Assembly (NCBI GenBank): GCA_029259155.1
Contig: JAPDJI010000006.1
Location: 5,657 to 69,656 of the forward strand
Length of the DNA: 64,000 bases
Direction of reading: 5' to 3'
Origin: Candidatus Methanomethylicia archaeon
Lineage (GTDB): Archaea; Thermoproteota; Methanomethylicia; Nezhaarchaeales; B40-G2
Below the pieces are notes generated by a model. That model was not told the DNA's origin. It was given only the letters and a program-made list of their open reading frames with translations, and made no database searches. The position numbers and the translations under genes are program-made. Of this stretch, positions 10,473 to 18,302 are shown one piece after another. Each line of letters begins with the position of its first letter. Position 1 is the first letter of the stretch.

Positions 10473-11660
10473 GTGGCTTACGTCTCGTCCGCTCGCCTCG
10501 ACGCTGCACGAAGAATCATGGAGGAGTTCGCCTGCTCGACAGGCCTACTTCCTGAAGGCTATCCACGGCGCTACCTATGGACAGATGCCTTCGCGGTGTT
10601 CAACTTCTTGGAGCTCCATAGGCTTACAGGCGAGGCGCTCTATAAGCAGCTCGCGTTGCGCCTTGTAGAACAGGTTCACCACGTCTTGGGAAAGCATCGC
10701 GGAGACGATGGGCGTAGCGGCTGGATAAGCGGGCTTGAAGACCGTGAGGCTGAGGAACACCCGACGGCCCGCGGCTTAAGGATAGGCAAGAAGCTACCTG
10801 AGCGCGGACCAGACGAGCCTTACGACCCTATCTTGGAGTGGGAGCGCGACGGTCAATACTACCACTACCTCACTAAGTGGATGCTCGCCCTATGCAGGGT
10901 AGCTCAGGCGACAGGCGACGCTAAGTACCTTAGATGCTCCGTGGAGCTAGCCGAGGTAGCACACGCCGCCTTCACTTACACCTCGTCTCTCGATGGCCGC
11001 AAGCACCTATACTGGAAGATGAGTATAGACCTCTCCCGCCCCCTAGTACCTCAGGAAGGTCAGCACGACGCGCTCGACGGCCTCATAACCTACGCTGAGC
11101 TTCAAGCAGCCTCGCCGGCGGGGTCGCTGCACCTAAGGAACCAGGTAACGGATGCTCTAAGCATGTGTAGGGAAAGAGATTGGAGTGAGTGGGTTACTGA
11201 TGACCTGCTCGGCGTAGGTGAGCTCTTAAGCCTCTCCTTCAGGGCGGCGAGGCTAATTCTCGAGGGCATGGACTACTTAGCTGAGCTGCTATACCCTCTG
11301 CTCGAGGCTGCGCACGTTAGCCTTAGAGCTTACCTGTCTAAGGACTTCTTCAACCTTCCAGCCAGCCGTAGGCTCGCCTTCCGCGAGCTCGGCCTCTCGA
11401 TAGGCCTTCACGCCGCTGAGAGGCTTAAAGCCCTGGCCGGGAAGTTACGCGCCCTCCACCATCCATTACTTAAGGACGTAGGAAGGTTTACTTCGATGAA
11501 CGAGGAGATTGAAAGGTTCTGGCTTAACCCAGCAAGCTGGGAGGCTGATACTTGGGTGGAGCACCGGGACATTAACATGGTCATGCTGGCGACGAGCCTA
11601 ATACCCGATGGATACCTCGGTCGACTACCCAGCTCTGTGCAGCGTGAAGATCTACGTTGA
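10473..11660 (+). CDS. Conserved hypothetical protein (395 aa), possibly an all-alpha (alpha/alpha toroid-like) enzyme
   Basis: Long ORF with good codon-usage coherence; no motif I can assign with confidence. Confidence 0.45.
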   Translation: MAYVSSARLDAARRIMEEFACSTGLLPEGYPRRYLWTDAFAVFNFLELHRLTGEALYKQLALRLVEQVHHVLGKHRGDDGRSGWISGLEDREAEEHPTARGLRIGKKLPERGPDEPYDPILEWERDGQYYHYLTKWMLALCRVAQATGDAKYLRCSVELAEVAHAAFTYTSSLDGRKHLYWKMSIDLSRPLVPQEGQHDALDGLITYAELQAASPAGSLHLRNQVTDALSMCRERDWSEWVTDDLLGVGELLSLSFRAARLILEGMDYLAELLYPLLEAAHVSLRAYLSKDFFNLPASRRLAFRELGLSIGLHAAERLKALAGKLRALHHPLLKDVGRFTSMNEEIERFWLNPASWEADTWVEHRDINMVMLATSLIPDGYLGRLPSSVQREDLR

Positions 11661-13989: not shown

Positions 13990-15417
13990 CTAGGCTCCTC
14001 CAGTTTTAAAGAGCTCATCTAGTGTTGCTTGGCTTCCTCTACGTTTACGTTTGATCACTGAGAGGAAATCATCGCGTACCGGCCGATAAACCTCGTCGTA
14101 AAAACGTTGTTGATCCAGTAGGGTGGTGCGCGGGAAGTTCCTTAAGTAGTCAAGCGCCGCTTTCCAAGCTTCCTCGTAAGGTATAATGGCCTCTATACGT
14201 TTAGCTATCTGTCTATCGTAGTCGCTAGGCTTCTGCTCCATGTCACCTATGGCGAACCAGCCTCTGGGTGAAAGGTAAGCTCCTTCATCTCCAATCTGCT
14301 CCATTTTCTTCTCGCCGTGCACGTATGTAGTTAACGTGGCGCGGCGTCTAGGTTGAAGGAGGCGGTCTCTGGCGTAGCGTTTAGCCCATGCATAGAAGAC
14401 GGCTCGATTAAGGCCGAAGGACTTTGCCTTCTCGAGATCCCCAGTCACTAAGTAATAGCGGGCAGCTTGTAGGAGGCCCATGACCTGAAACCTACCCAGC
14501 CTACCTGTAGGGGCTTTAAGTCCATGTACGGTGGCTGGTCGAACCTCTTCGGCCTCCACAACAGTTCTAGCTTGCCCTGTCTTAACATAGCCAGGCCAGC
14601 CATCGTAGCCTCCAACCTCTACCAACGCCTTTTCAGCCAGTTTATCCCCTTCTCCTTCCTCGTACTTCCTCCACGAAGGGTCATGTTTAAAGCTCTCAGG
14701 TCTAGCCCAATCCGGATGAAAACTGATCAGCTTATCGGGTTTAAAGCATACGCAGCATAGATCTAGTTTGCGGTGAAGCGATAGGGGGGCGGTGAAAACC
14801 CTCTTCAAGTCGATCTTGTTCTCAACCTTAAGTGGCCTATCGCCTGTCGGAGCTAATGAAGCTATCTTTTTCAGCTCACTCTTAACGGAGCGTAAAACAT
14901 ATTCCACGACGGAGAACGCCACGTCGAGAGGATTATGCTTAGCGAGGAGGTCGGGGGAGAAGGCTCTTTCATGTATATGTACGTGTATGCCTCGACCTGA
15001 CCACTTCAAGAATAAAGATTCCTCTACTCCTTCCTTCTCGAGCTTCGATACTATTGTTTCAGCTGCATCTAAGGCTTGACGCCAGCTTTCAAGGCTTGCG
15101 TCCACGTCCCAGACTGGAGACGTGAATGTTATGTTGAAGGGTTTATCGAGGTCTTCAGCAAGCTCAAGCTTAGCGTAAAGGTTTATAGAGGCATAGAAGG
15201 TTCTAGGCTTAAGCCCCTTGAACCTCTTAATCAGCTTCTCCAAATCCTCAGTTGTATCAATGGTTATGGGTCTCTCTCCTCTCCTCCAGTATCTTAAGAA
15301 AACCCTTCCCTCCTTCTCCTCCCCCTCTAAAGCAACCCAACGCCCCCTACAGTACGACACTACCTCCTCCTTAACTTCAGGCCTAGAGTAGTAGGCTAAG
15401 ACCTCCTCGTAGTCCAA
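13990..15417 (-). CDS. Archaeo-eukaryotic primase (AEP) catalytic subunit, PriS-like, with about 260-aa C-terminal extension
   Basis: AEP motifs I (VWDVDAS), II (KWSGRGIHVHI) and III (KIDLKRVFTAPLSLHRK) are present in order; no zinc-knuckle Cys cluster between motifs I and II. Confidence 0.5.
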   Translation of the reverse strand: MDYEEVLAYYSRPEVKEEVVSYCRGRWVALEGEEKEGRVFLRYWRRGERPITIDTTEDLEKLIKRFKGLKPRTFYASINLYAKLELAEDLDKPFNITFTSPVWDVDASLESWRQALDAAETIVSKLEKEGVEESLFLKWSGRGIHVHIHERAFSPDLLAKHNPLDVAFSVVEYVLRSVKSELKKIASLAPTGDRPLKVENKIDLKRVFTAPLSLHRKLDLCCVCFKPDKLISFHPDWARPESFKHDPSWRKYEEGEGDKLAEKALVEVGGYDGWPGYVKTGQARTVVEAEEVRPATVHGLKAPTGRLGRFQVMGLLQAARYYLVTGDLEKAKSFGLNRAVFYAWAKRYARDRLLQPRRRATLTTYVHGEKKMEQIGDEGAYLSPRGWFAIGDMEQKPSDYDRQIAKRIEAIIPYEEAWKAALDYLRNFPRTTLLDQQRFYDEVYRPVRDDFLSVIKRKRRGSQATLDELFKTGGA

Positions 15418-15504
15418 GCTAGTCGCCTAGAGTAAAAGGAGGCTGCTCAGCCTCTTACATTTTCCTACCTAAAACTAAAAATGGTCCTCTAAGAGACTAT
15501 ACTC

Positions 15505-16296
15505 GTGATCGTATTGCTTTCCAAGTTGAAGGAACTCTCTTCAAAGCTACAAGCTCTCCTAAAGCTAGAATCTCAACCCGTGGCAGTTAAGCTAGTTAAG
15601 GAGTCCTCGGAGATTAAAGGTTTCAAAACTCCGGGCGAGATGAAGGTTAAATTAGCGGTCTGCCAGACCCTAGCCATGTCTTGGAGGTATGGATGGAGCG
15701 TTGCTGTAACTAATGAAGAATGTGCATGTCAGGTTGCTAAAGTTATCTTCGGCTGGTTAAAAGTGGACCTAGAAACTTTCGCGAGCGCTTTCCTTAAGTG
15801 TGGCTTCTTTAAAGATATGTGCGCCGCTATTAAAGGTGTAAAGTCATCTCTAGAGGAATGCAATATCTGCCCCGACAGCTGCTTCGCTGTAGCCTCTACT
15901 CCTATGTCGAAGGCTCCATGGCTCCCAGACGTGGTGTTAATGTACTGTAACCCAGCTCAATCTCAGCTGCTAGCCTTAGGCTACTCTTACATTAACGGGG
16001 ACAGCGTGGAGATAAAGTATTCAGGTAAACACGCATCGTGTGGTTATGCCATCGCTAAAACGTTTAGCTCCAAGAAGCCTGTCCTCGTTCCTCCAGGCGG
16101 AGGGGACAAAGTGTTTGCCGCATGTGACCCAGGCCACGTCATCTTCGCCCTCCCGCCGAGTCTTCTGGAAGGAGTAGTTGAAGGCATTGAACATGTACGG
16201 CAAGCTGGCGTTACTAACTACCCAACTCCTATCTTCTTAAGGTTTGAACCTCAACTTCCTCAACCCTTCAGGGAGCTTGAGAGAGAGGTCGAGTAG
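15505..16296 (+). CDS. DUF169-family (COG2043-like) conserved archaeal protein; ends with TAG
   Basis: 263 aa with multiple conserved Cys; divergent from the AEP gene; 41 nt upstream of the MutS-like gene. Confidence 0.45.
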   Translation: MIVLLSKLKELSSKLQALLKLESQPVAVKLVKESSEIKGFKTPGEMKVKLAVCQTLAMSWRYGWSVAVTNEECACQVAKVIFGWLKVDLETFASAFLKCGFFKDMCAAIKGVKSSLEECNICPDSCFAVASTPMSKAPWLPDVVLMYCNPAQSQLLALGYSYINGDSVEIKYSGKHASCGYAIAKTFSSKKPVLVPPGGGDKVFAACDPGHVIFALPPSLLEGVVEGIEHVRQAGVTNYPTPIFLRFEPQLPQPFRELEREVE

Positions 16297-16337
16297 TTTA
16301 CCCAAGCCTTTTTAGGCTTAGAGCCTAGAGCTTATCG

Positions 16338-18302
16338 ATGTCCTACCCCTCACTAATCCTAGCTCTAGGGGCCAGAGTCCGTAAACTCCCCAGCTTTCAG
16401 CATCCTTTCCTCGAAGACTGTTTAGACCTATGCGACCTAGCCTCAGCCTCTACGCTGCTCAAGATTAGCGTTGAAGAAGCTTCTAGGCTAGCTTTAAGGT
16501 TAAAGGAGGTTAAAGCTAAAGTTAAGCTATCAGATGTGGCTTGCACTAAGGATGCCAGAAAGGTGTTAAAGGAAGTTCTAACAGAAGCGGCTCGCTACCC
16601 TGTTTTGGAGCCAGCTAGGCACAGCCTTCTCCTTACCCTACCTTCCTTGAGCTTAGAGGAGGCTCAAGGAAGGTTAAGGCTAGTGGAGGAGGCGATGAAA
16701 CTACTTAGAGAGATAGACTACGAGGAGGTCAAGGCTAAGCTGCTGCAGGCTTCTTTCGAGCGAGCTAAGCTCCCTATCCTTAACGTGGCTCTTGCTCTGA
16801 CCAGTAAGAAGCTCTATGAAGAAGCTGAGGCTATGTATACACCTTTCATCAAGGTGGAGCTCATAGACTCGGCTGAGAAGGCTAGAAACGTGGTGGAGGA
16901 GAACGATGTAACCCTAACCATGACGCAGCTGCCTGTCGACGAGCCGGGCTTGGTTCCAATAGCTGGGCTTGAAGACATAGAGGTGGTTCCCCATATCATC
17001 GCCTCACTCTACTCTGCTTGGAGAAAGCCTCTTGAAGCCTTTCTTGAACTCGCTGAGATTTACGGCGAGTTCTCAGTCTTCAAAGCTTTTAGAGAGGACA
17101 GCTCGCTGGAACTTGTCAAGGAAGTGGCTCGCCTCATGTCCCTCTACTCCCCTGAGGGGGAGGACATCGAAGAAGCCTTTGGCTGGCTTGAAGCTGAGGT
17201 TAAGTCCTTAGCCAGGAGGGTGTTAAGGGAAGGCGGAGGAGCTGAATCGTTTAAAGAAGGAGCTAGAAGCCTACTAGCTGAGGCTACAGATAGGTTTAAT
17301 CTAAGCTGGAGGGCTCAAAAACTTCTTGAAGAAGCTCTCGAGGAGGTTGAAGCTCCTTACTTTGAGCTACCTAGATATAAGCTGGAGGCTTTGAGAAGCC
17401 TCAACCGCAGGGAGGTTGGTGAGAAGCGTTTCCTTGAAGCTAGAGAGCTGGTTAAGAAGCTCTATAAGGTTAGAGAAAGCGTGAAGCGGTGCTTAAAGTC
17501 CCTGATAGACTTCGACCTTTCGCTGGCGTTGGCTAGGTTCAGCCTTGACTATGATCTAAGGCCTGCTAAGCTCGTTAATAAGCTCGGTTTGGGCTTCATC
17601 AATGCTCGAAACCTAACCCTACTACGTGAAGAAAAGCTGGGTATAGCCAAGGTTCAGCCAGTTTCCTACGCTATAGGAGATACCGAGATCAAGTTGCTGG
17701 GCGCGACTCCACAGCGCGTCGTGCTCTTGACAGGTGCTAATAGCGGTGGTAAGACGACACTCCTCCTCACCATAACCCAGATCCACCTCATGGCATTACT
17801 AGGGCTCCCAGTTCCAGCTGAAAAAGCAGAGGTTCCCTTAATGCCGCTATTCCTCCTGAGACGTAGGACAGCTAAGAGGCTTGGAAGCCTGGAGTATGCT
17901 ATTAGGCGTTTAAGGCTCATCTTCACTAAGCCTGGACCCAAACTAGTCCTCATAGACGAGTTCGAGGCTCTCACGGAGCCTGGAGCCATGGGGAGGATGA
18001 TGGCTGCCCTCCTTAACAACCTCCCTCGCCGCTCGTTAACGGTATTCGTTACCCACCTCTCCAGGGAAATAATCCCTCACCTACGCGTCCCATTTAGGGT
18101 GGATGGAATAGAGGCTAAGGGTTTGGACGAACGGGGCGAACTTATCGTAGATCGACAGCCTCTATTTAACCACGTAGGCGCAAGCACCCCTGAGCTAATT
18201 GTAAGCAAGCTCCAACACGAAACTGCCAGTAGGAGGTTGAGGAGGCTCTATGAGAGCATGTTGGCAAGCTTGAGACAGGAACCTCTAAAACCTTTAATCT
18301 AG
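16338..18302 (+). CDS. MutS-family ATPase (MutS2-like domain V) with long N-terminal helical region; ends with TAG
   Basis: Walker A LLTGANSGGKTTLL and Walker B region LVLIDEFEALTEPGAMGRMMAAL matching the MutS2 D-E...T-D/E-P pattern. Confidence 0.7.
   Translation: MSYPSLILALGARVRKLPSFQHPFLEDCLDLCDLASASTLLKISVEEASRLALRLKEVKAKVKLSDVACTKDARKVLKEVLTEAARYPVLEPARHSLLLTLPSLSLEEAQGRLRLVEEAMKLLREIDYEEVKAKLLQASFERAKLPILNVALALTSKKLYEEAEAMYTPFIKVELIDSAEKARNVVEENDVTLTMTQLPVDEPGLVPIAGLEDIEVVPHIIASLYSAWRKPLEAFLELAEIYGEFSVFKAFREDSSLELVKEVARLMSLYSPEGEDIEEAFGWLEAEVKSLARRVLREGGGAESFKEGARSLLAEATDRFNLSWRAQKLLEEALEEVEAPYFELPRYKLEALRSLNRREVGEKRFLEARELVKKLYKVRESVKRCLKSLIDFDLSLALARFSLDYDLRPAKLVNKLGLGFINARNLTLLREEKLGIAKVQPVSYAIGDTEIKLLGATPQRVVLLTGANSGGKTTLLLTITQIHLMALLGLPVPAEKAEVPLMPLFLLRRRTAKRLGSLEYAIRRLRLIFTKPGPKLVLIDEFEALTEPGAMGRMMAALLNNLPRRSLTVFVTHLSREIIPHLRVPFRVDGIEAKGLDERGELIVDRQPLFNHVGASTPELIVSKLQHETASRRLRRLYESMLASLRQEPLKPLI

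Follow-up and report, generated by a model that had tools for sequence, protein, structure and literature searches.

A compact, zinc-free primase-polymerase-type protein of a conserved archaeal family, next to DUF169 and MutS5-type genes in a Candidatus Methanomethylicia genome

We analysed a stretch of 64,000 nucleotides from a Candidatus Methanomethylicia archaeon (assembly GCA_029259155.1, contig JAPDJI010000006.1, positions 5,657 to 69,656), referred to here as the window, and within it an open reading frame (ORF) encoding a protein that belongs to the superfamily of archaeo-eukaryotic primases (AEPs). The AEP ORF occupies 13990..15417 on the minus strand and encodes 475 amino acids from a TTG start that agrees with the alignment of its homologues; the protein is identical to DRJ98_06160 of a metagenome-assembled genome (MAG) named Thermoprotei archaeon. 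On the same strand its parts follow one another as an N-terminal catalytic domain (residues 1 to about 285; 14563..15417), a disordered inter-domain linker that varies in length and sequence among homologues (residues 291-303; 14509..14547), a modelled family-specific C-domain (residues 305-461; 14035..14505) and a disordered tail holding a motif that resembles the PCNA-interacting-protein (PIP) box, Q463-A-T-L-D-E-L-F470 (14008..14031). Linker and tail both have a predicted local distance difference test score (pLDDT) below 50. A divergent intergenic region of 87 nt (15418..15504) separates the AEP ORF from a plus-strand gene for a DUF169 protein (15505..16296), which is followed after 41 nt, on the same strand, by a gene for a MutS-family ATPase (16338..18302). 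The three ORFs and both gaps lie where an original prediction, made from the sequence, had placed them. That prediction offered two options for the AEP protein: the cellular primase subunit PriS in an unusual form, or a Prim-Pol-like enzyme of repair or mobile-element origin that works with the MutS-like ATPase. The best reading of our results is that the ORF encodes a second primase-polymerase, distinct from PriS, that serves in repair or damage tolerance and does not form a module with MutS.

The translation contains the three catalytic motifs of the AEP superfamily. Motif I, D104-V-D106 (15100..15108), supplies metal ligands and motif II, S140-G-R-G-I-H145 (14983..15000), is the nucleotide-binding motif. 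Motif III, DLKRVFTAPLSLH (D203-LKR206-VFTAPLSL-H215, followed by R-K; 14773..14811), provides the third acidic residue and residues that bind the nucleoside triphosphate. Motif II aligned to SGRGYH of Pyrococcus furiosus PriS, and motif III to TVDIKRILRLPSTLHSK of the PriS structure 1G71. In an alignment of 30 homologues, W103, D104, D106, W139, S140, G141, G143, H145, D203, K205, R206 and H215 are invariant. Since the members of this alignment share only 49-73% identity, the motifs are no chance match, and the predicted series DxD, SGRGxH and SLHxK is borne out by both translation and conservation. The 33 residues between motifs I and II (107-139) include neither Cys nor His, so the PriS-type zinc knuckle is absent, again as had been predicted. 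The whole protein has four Cys, of which only C224 is invariant. Judged by its sequence, the ORF is predicted to encode a genuine primase-polymerase-type enzyme with an intact active site.

An AlphaFold2 model built on the 30-sequence alignment has a mean pLDDT of 86.5, with disorder confined to residues 291-303, 349-364 and 462-475. Every significant Foldseek match to this model was an AEP, which identifies the AEP catalytic fold. The core is compact, resembles the polymerase domain (PolDom) of LigD and carries no zinc insert; LigD-Pol and Prim-PolC were its closest structural matches, and PriS matched less well. This agreement favours a Prim-Pol-like repair role as the better of the two options first put forward. 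At the sequence level, no significant match to the 475-amino-acid protein was found in Pfam, NCBIfam, PHROGs, PADLOC or the PDB sequences; the best profile match among PDB sequences, which was insignificant, was to 1G71 and aligned at motifs II and III. The PriS model (PF01896) did not match the window protein at E-values up to 0.1, and neither did the LigD_Prim-Pol model (PF21686). Among the 30 relatives, 13 showed sub-threshold matches to DNA_primase_S (PF01896; best E 5.4e-4) and 8 to LigD_Prim-Pol, with the divergent relative P0139 reaching 24.6 bits against a cut-off of 27.4. These were the only sub-threshold Pfam matches that bear on AEP identity. The comparison with model families proposed in the original prediction touched PriS and LigD-Pol, below threshold and in relatives; the third type named there, the Prim-Pol of plasmid pRN1 (PF09250), gave neither a family-model match nor a close fold. 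The protein belongs to a distinct family between PriS and LigD-Pol, the two AEP families most like it, with the compact zinc-free shape of a repair polymerase. A paralogue search with the family profile found no further member inside the window.

The 260-residue C-terminal extension described in the original prediction resolves into about 70 more residues of the AEP domain, the linker, a domain of 157 amino acids (residues 305-461) and a tail of 14. The length of the extra module was thus overstated, and the lack of a recognisable fold held: a structure search with the C-domain found no match among solved structures, the C-terminal domain of PriL (PriL-CTD) and PriX included. Modelled alone from 33 sequences (pLDDT 84, predicted template modelling score 0.78), the domain runs from a helical hairpin (GRFQVM.LLQAARY, AKSFGLNRA.FYAWAK) through a disordered loop and a four-strand sheet to a five-helix bundle ending in RDxF. 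Many of its positions are, like those of the active site, invariant in the 30-homologue alignment. A helix-turn-helix (HTH) was considered for the second helix of the hairpin, on which weak Pfam matches fall (Terminase_5, HTH_29 and HTH_66; E 0.006-0.15), and was rejected, as the model predicts one continuous helix there.

The C-domain also occurs without a working catalytic domain. Among the proteins gathered, 127 have both domains (N+C) and are catalytically intact, about 13 have both and are clearly dead, 139 consist of the C-domain only (at most 230 amino acids), and 57 are N-only with intact motifs. A search with the C-domain alone found many complete genes for proteins of about 155-185 amino acids, including those of cultured Infirmifilum lucidum, Infirmifilum sp. 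NZ and Korarchaeum. Two such loci were read, in Infirmifilum sp. NZ (L087:10001-10504; CP094288.1) and in Korarchaeum sp. (L088:10001-10474). Their products have 157-167 amino acids, and no AEP domain was found within 10 kb of either gene in any frame. The catalytically dead fusions (among them P0140, P0148, P0154, P0156, P0160, P0168, P0170 and P0177) have 423-458 amino acids and lie on contigs of up to 128 kb. Their AEP domain is still recognisable (GV..SVY..W.G..FEVRIHE, APLS), with DxD replaced by RIT, FIG or VIE, SGxGxH by DGEGFE or TGKWFE, and the third Asp lost. All ten of the C-domain positions checked, chosen as invariant or nearly so in the 30-homologue alignment, are retained in them. 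Because it is kept in stand-alone genes and beside dead AEP domains, the C-domain is the part of the system under the tightest constraint, and its conservation is stricter than that of the catalytic core. Catalysis itself is under selection in most of the family, since the window protein and the 127 N+C proteins have kept all their catalytic residues.

Two further arrangements were seen among the relatives. A Bathyarchaeia contig carries a full-length family gene (L008:6497-7891, plus strand) and, 3.6 kb from it, an N-domain-only paralogue (L008:11547-12545, minus strand). This paralogue adjoins a gene for a KaiC/RecA-like ATPase, and the pairing of an N-only gene with such an ATPase recurs in L089. 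In another locus the family gene is broken by a single in-frame stop at profile position 343 (L024:9890-11011 and L024:11015-11398, plus strand). The stop falls in a variable segment after the first C-domain helices; an error of sequencing, a pseudogene and a true split are all possible explanations.

Among 5.8 billion proteins searched, 677 homologues were found. The best 120 of these are mostly 450-488 amino acids long (two are shorter), are 49-72% identical to the query, apart from one that is the query itself (100%), and have no Pfam domain. They come from Thermoprotei, Bathyarchaeia, Methanomethylicia, Nezhaarchaeales, Nitrososphaerota and Asgard MAGs. One homologue record of the Joint Genome Institute (JGI) bears the name "DNA primase catalytic subunit". 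With one genome taken per GTDB species, a relative was present in 407 of 185,579 species genomes, a patchy distribution; the best 80 of these 407 genomes are all TACK or Asgard MAGs except two labelled Woesearchaeota. Homologue and genome searches together place the family in Bathyarchaeia, Methanomethylicia, Nezhaarchaeales, Korarchaeia, Thermofilaceae, Desulfurococcaceae, Brockarchaeota and Nitrososphaeria and, among Asgard archaea, in the Odin, Baldr, Njord and other lineages. An exhaustive profile search of 1.84 billion representatives yielded 391 proteins, 97 of them at an E-value of 1e-30 or below, and N-only proteins of about 290-308 amino acids were included. The family is conserved and chromosomal, and is absent from the curated libraries searched (Pfam, NCBIfam, PHROGs and PADLOC). 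No prior description of it was found in the literature searched, which included a 2015 review of AEPs and a 2018 survey of new AEP families and did not cover arCOG annotations. What is new here is a variant inside the known AEP superfamily; it brings an accessory domain that may itself be new, and its spread over active, inactivated and split forms is unusual.

The window protein ends in KRKRRGSQATLDELFKTGGA. Within this tail, the motif QATLDELF stands between the basic stretch KRKRRG and the sequence KTGGA, at a distance of five residues from the C-terminus and in a low-confidence segment of the model. The PIP-box consensus is Qxx[I/L/M]xx[aromatic][aromatic], and in archaea the motif usually lies at the extreme terminus (PMC3504372). 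QATLDELF fits the published pattern and the terminal position, with Leu instead of an aromatic residue at position 7; a relative of 62% identity has the tail QATLDLF. We compared the tails of family proteins with at least 18 residues after RDxF (n=174) with other ORFs of the same loci, scoring in the last 14 residues the pattern L-x-x-hydrophobic-hydrophobic with at least one aromatic. The pattern was present in 91 of the 174 family tails (52%) and in 118 of 1039 control ORFs (11%), an odds ratio of 8.6 (Fisher p 7e-32) by a statistic that ignores phylogeny. A strict PIP regular expression matched 7% of the family tails and 0.8% of the controls. The forms vary by clade, with LDELF, LFKWF, LLDFL and LEEFF among them, and C-only proteins carry PIP-like tails too. 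Such variation is typical of a short linear motif under selection, and the tail is probably a segment that binds the sliding clamp, PCNA.

The DUF169 protein (263 amino acids) has a full-length match to PF02596 (E 4.5e-41; 141 bits, with the cut-off at 27) and contains 11 Cys, as expected from its description as Cys-rich. The 87-nt region upstream of its gene includes an A/T-rich, TATA-like stretch, taaaactaaaaat, read from the sequence. The 654-amino-acid ATPase has a Walker A motif, GANSGGKTT (17733..17759), and a Walker B motif, DEFEALTEP (17955..17981); PDB entries for the ATPase domains of MutS2 and MutS matched this region (E 4e-6). The MutS_V model scored 26 bits against a cut-off of 30.2, and PF00488 is precomputed for an identical protein. 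Pfam gave no match to Smr, domain I or any MutS domain other than domain V, and the MutS2 model TIGR01069 scored 68 bits against a cut-off of 400. With no Smr domain match and a score so far under the model cut-off, the protein is not MutS2 proper; the original prediction was right in describing a MutS-family ATPase with a Walker B region like that of MutS2. The homologues are archaeal MutS-related proteins, all with PF00488, of Haloferax volcanii, Pyrolobus fumarii and Methanobacterium. Lin et al. (2007) assigned archaea-specific MutS-like proteins, earlier called MutS2-like, to MutS5, and the P. furiosus protein of this type has ATPase activity and non-specific DNA binding and no mismatch-specific binding (PMC2190696). 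The ATPase in the window, with a domain-V ATPase, Walker A and B motifs and no other MutS domains, resembles these proteins, and from its homologues and domain content we infer that it is of MutS5 type.

These neighbours do not travel with the AEP gene. In a sample of about 80 distinct family loci from other species, the MutS-like gene was found in none. The one locus with DUF169 next to the AEP gene is that of the nearest relative (L004 = L022; 72% identity); DUF169 lies about 3 kb away in L074 and is missing from the rest of the sample. The gene order in L004 is radical-SAM, MFS, DUF169 and then, divergently, AEP, with no MutS-like gene. A 950-kb JGI contig found from the MutS-like side (L090) has the order ACT-SerB, GYD, AEP (62% identity) and, divergently, MutS-like (55%), with no DUF169 gene. 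A third locus (L091), whose MutS-like gene is 37% identical, has neither an AEP nor a DUF169 gene. Flanking SerB, GYD, MFS and radical-SAM genes are syntenic in the L004 and L090 relatives. Because the flanks are syntenic and the DUF169 and MutS-like genes come and go independently, the trio represents inherited local gene order and not a module. In the window itself, a GYD-domain gene (PF08734; 13650..13937, minus strand) follows the AEP gene after 52 nt on the same strand, a pairing kept in L090 and not in L004. The DUF169 and MutS5-type genes are lineage-specific neighbours outside any conserved module, not obligate partners, and beyond local gene order nothing ties the AEP gene to the MutS-like gene. 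The proposal that the AEP enzyme works with the ATPase is therefore not upheld.

No other conserved neighbour emerged. When about 800 neighbours were clustered, no family occurred in more than 8 loci, and the 147 immediate neighbours span 160 Pfam families, MFS being the commonest (8/147). An ATP-dependent DNA ligase gene lies within 3.5 kb in 7 of the approximately 80 loci. In Nezhaarchaeales, a ligase gene of replicative type is 34-56 nt downstream of the family gene on the same strand (L001:9453-11183, L020:11472-13187 and L033:11453-13183), which suggests that the two genes form one operon there. RNase HII is encoded directly downstream of the family gene in L065 and L076, and 43 nt downstream of the C-only gene of L088 on the same strand. 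As each of these links collapses to about two independent lineages, they are hints only. Ku was not seen among the annotated neighbours, no search having been aimed at it, and no phosphoesterase context was seen. A DUF5131 (phage Gp37/Gp68-like) gene adjoins the family gene in four Bathyarchaeia loci (L002:6701-7831, L044:8641-9825, L043:7968-9728 and L089:11101-12744), and the copies in L002 and L089 contain an intein or LAGLIDADG domain.

We also looked for signs of a mobile origin. No relatives of the family were found in IMG/VR or among the plasmids of PLSDB, and PHROG and PADLOC gave no match to the family protein. GC content at the AEP locus is typical, with no compositional anomaly, and neither tRNA genes nor Rfam RNAs were found in the window. 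Of the 35 window ORFs compared with Pfam, some have no match, the others are genes of metabolism or transport, and none is a recombinase; the genomic contexts examined for the family are of housekeeping character. The flanking genes that were scanned or listed contained neither a recombinase nor any other Pfam domain of mobile elements; in L006, a gene with an HTH only showed faint matches of transposase type. The sole annotated phage or plasmid relative is a 927-amino-acid protein of Caudoviricetes sp. vir525 (BK063673.1; L092:3980-6763), which has a Methanosarcinales host. Its AEP domain matches the family profile at E 5.6e-16 (positions 5-232; 24% identity over residues 6-230). A Cys-rich PriL-like domain (PF04104, E 5e-4) occupies residues 294-385, where the family has its C-domain, and a large further region follows. 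This protein, annotated as hypothetical, looks like a PriS-PriL fusion, and its gene adjoins one for a DNA helicase.

Elsewhere in the window, the segment 35856..41932 (minus strand) has a GC content of 0.57, against about 0.48-0.50 in the remainder. We suspected ribosomal RNA there from the GC content and ruled it out, as the segment holds no Rfam RNA and is protein-coding: it encodes three Mrp/Nuo antiporter-like membrane subunits (PF00361), then two TrkA-N proteins. Within another GC-rich stretch (0.55), an ORF of 395 amino acids (10473..11660, plus strand) has no Pfam match.

Among known AEP systems, the LigD-type polymerases of non-homologous end joining (NHEJ) and the mycobacterial Prim-PolC (2IRU, 2FAO, 5DMU and 6SA0; PF21686) share with the family the compact zinc-free core. 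They differ from it in that structure-based identity is 14-17% and the Pfam model is not reached; the 157-residue C-domain and PIP-like tail belong to the archaeal family alone, and in contrast to the LigD operon the family is archaeal (TACK and Asgard) and single-gene. PriS and Pri1 (PF01896; 1V33, 1G71, 1ZT2 and 4BPU) belong to the same superfamily, have the same three motifs and show the highest structure-based identity (21-22% for two archaeal PriS structures and 19% for human Pri1), whereas the family has no zinc motif and no threshold PF01896 match. Mobile-element PriS-PriL fusions, such as PolpTN2 of pTN2 (PMC3973330) and the vir525 protein, resemble the family in that about 290 residues with an AEP domain precede a second domain. 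In the fusions, however, this second domain is PriL-like with a Cys cluster, whereas that of the family is unrelated and Cys-free; the family is, moreover, chromosomal and not linked to a helicase. With human PrimPol and ORF904 of pRN1 there is a functional analogy only: in these, a catalytic AEP domain is joined by a flexible linker to a small domain needed for priming, a zinc finger or a helix bundle (PMC4538821).

We give a probability of roughly 0.55 to the reading that the product of the AEP ORF is a catalytically intact enzyme of a conserved, chromosomal AEP family and most likely acts alongside the replicative PriS/PriL and not in its place. It is probably not the replicative primase of the cell. 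PriS/PriL is expected in the same genome because it is found in the archaea studied and is essential where tested (PMC3984812). In the mechanism that we propose, the triad of DxD and D203, with SGxGxH, R206 and H215, would catalyse template-directed nucleotide addition, and this synthesis could serve to fill gaps, extend ends or re-prime where DNA is damaged or interrupted. The tethered C-domain may bind DNA, the initiating nucleotide or a partner protein, in parallel to PriL-CTD, PriX, the zinc finger of PrimPol and the helix bundle of pRN1, and the tail would dock the enzyme on PCNA.

Several observations weigh against this account. Structure-based identity is slightly higher to PriS than to the LigD-type enzymes, and more members of the family show sub-threshold matches to PriS than to LigD (13 versus 8 of 30), so that the repair-type affiliation follows from compactness of fold and not from a clear phylogeny. 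The co-existence with PriS/PriL is expected from the literature and from indirect evidence rather than shown here. Catalysis is dispensable in some lineages, those with dead AEP fusions or stand-alone C-domains, which a simple repair polymerase would not predict. About half of the family tails have no PIP-like motif or are too short for one, and the enrichment of the motif takes no account of phylogeny. The ligase and RNase HII links, counted by AEP identity, come from about two independent lineages each, and the window has neither.

The dead and stand-alone forms lead to the main rival, which we regard as possible but doubtful: the C-domain would be the functional core, and the protein would serve a larger assembly for replication or repair as one of its subunits or as an adaptor (it might be an accessory to PriS/PriL or another polymerase, as PriX and PriL-CTD are), with the AEP domain secondary and in some lineages purely structural. 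This would account for the ten C-domain positions kept where the AEP domain has lost DxD, SGxGxH and D203, for the 139 C-only proteins, including the two whose loci contain no AEP domain within 10 kb, and for their PIP-like tails. The layout of AEP domain, flexible linker and small domain is also that of primer-initiating AEPs, and a PriL-like domain stands at the same place in the virus protein. Against this, the catalytic residues are all intact in the window protein and in 127 of the N+C proteins, the C-domain has no detectable similarity to PriL-CTD, PriX or any solved structure, and no partner emerges from gene context. A related and bolder proposal, which we advance as speculation at about the same low level of confidence, is that the C-domain is a new accessory module of DNA synthesis: a primer-initiation or template-loading factor coupled to PCNA, with which TACK and Asgard archaea would have a second system for priming or re-priming that does not depend on PriL. 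It would be fused to an active LigD-like AEP domain in most lineages, and would serve another polymerase or primase in trans where the AEP domain is dead or absent.

The other explanations fare worse. In the window the trio is arranged divergently with short gaps, L090 has its AEP and MutS-like genes side by side in divergent orientation, and DUF169 diverges from AEP in L004/L022, as might be expected if AEP, DUF169 and the MutS5-type ATPase formed a functional repair module co-regulated from the 87-nt divergent region. We consider this unlikely: the flanks of those relatives are syntenic too, which argues that the arrangement was inherited; the 72% relative has DUF169 without the MutS-like gene and the 62% relative the reverse, so neither is obligatory; the MutS-like gene is in none of the about 80 loci sampled from other species and, besides the closest relative, DUF169 is only in L074; and L091 has the MutS-like gene without the other two. 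In addition, haloarchaea, Pyrolobus and methanogens commonly have MutS5 relatives, and none of these groups is among the family matches listed. It is more improbable still that the ORF is the organism's only, lineage-typical replicative PriS in an unusual form. In favour of such a role are the intact motifs, the sub-threshold PF01896 matches in 13 of 30 members, the primase name given to one homologue in a JGI record, and the window itself, where no canonical PriS/PriL appears among the 35 ORFs scanned with Pfam and a motif search of all 70 called ORFs returned this gene only. A regular expression for canonical PriS (DxD ... SGx(1-3)GxH), run on the window and 1.5 Mb of other loci, returned only family members. 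Yet the protein has no threshold PF01896 match, no zinc motif and a poorer structural match to PriS than to LigD-Pol; the Bathyarchaeia contig carries an N-only paralogue at 3.6 kb from its full-length gene; lineages with a dead AEP domain or only the C-domain must prime replication otherwise; PriS/PriL, as noted above, is found in the archaea studied and is essential where tested; and a family in 407 of 185,579 species genomes is patchy. Least probable of all, and in our view highly improbable, is a plasmid-, virus- or defence-derived Prim-Pol domesticated in the genome. The methanogen virus protein of BK063673.1 is a distant AEP relative, but the absence of any other relative in IMG/VR, PLSDB, PHROG and PADLOC, the lack of recombinase or mobile-element domains in the flanking genes covered and the housekeeping contexts count against the mobile-element origin first suggested.

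The usual account gives archaea a single AEP primase, PriS/PriL, together with sporadic NHEJ or plasmid Prim-Pols. The family described here is a second well-conserved chromosomal family of archaeal AEPs, with 49-73% identity across phyla and a presence in about 400 species, Asgard archaea included. For annotation, its genes should not be labelled PriS, nor should adjacent MutS5 and DUF169 genes be taken for partners. Should the PIP-like tail bind PCNA, this would be a primase-polymerase tethered to the clamp, and in archaea it would be a candidate for filling gaps or for re-priming at forks; the origin of repair-type AEPs, LigD-Pol as against PriS, would become testable with an intermediate family.

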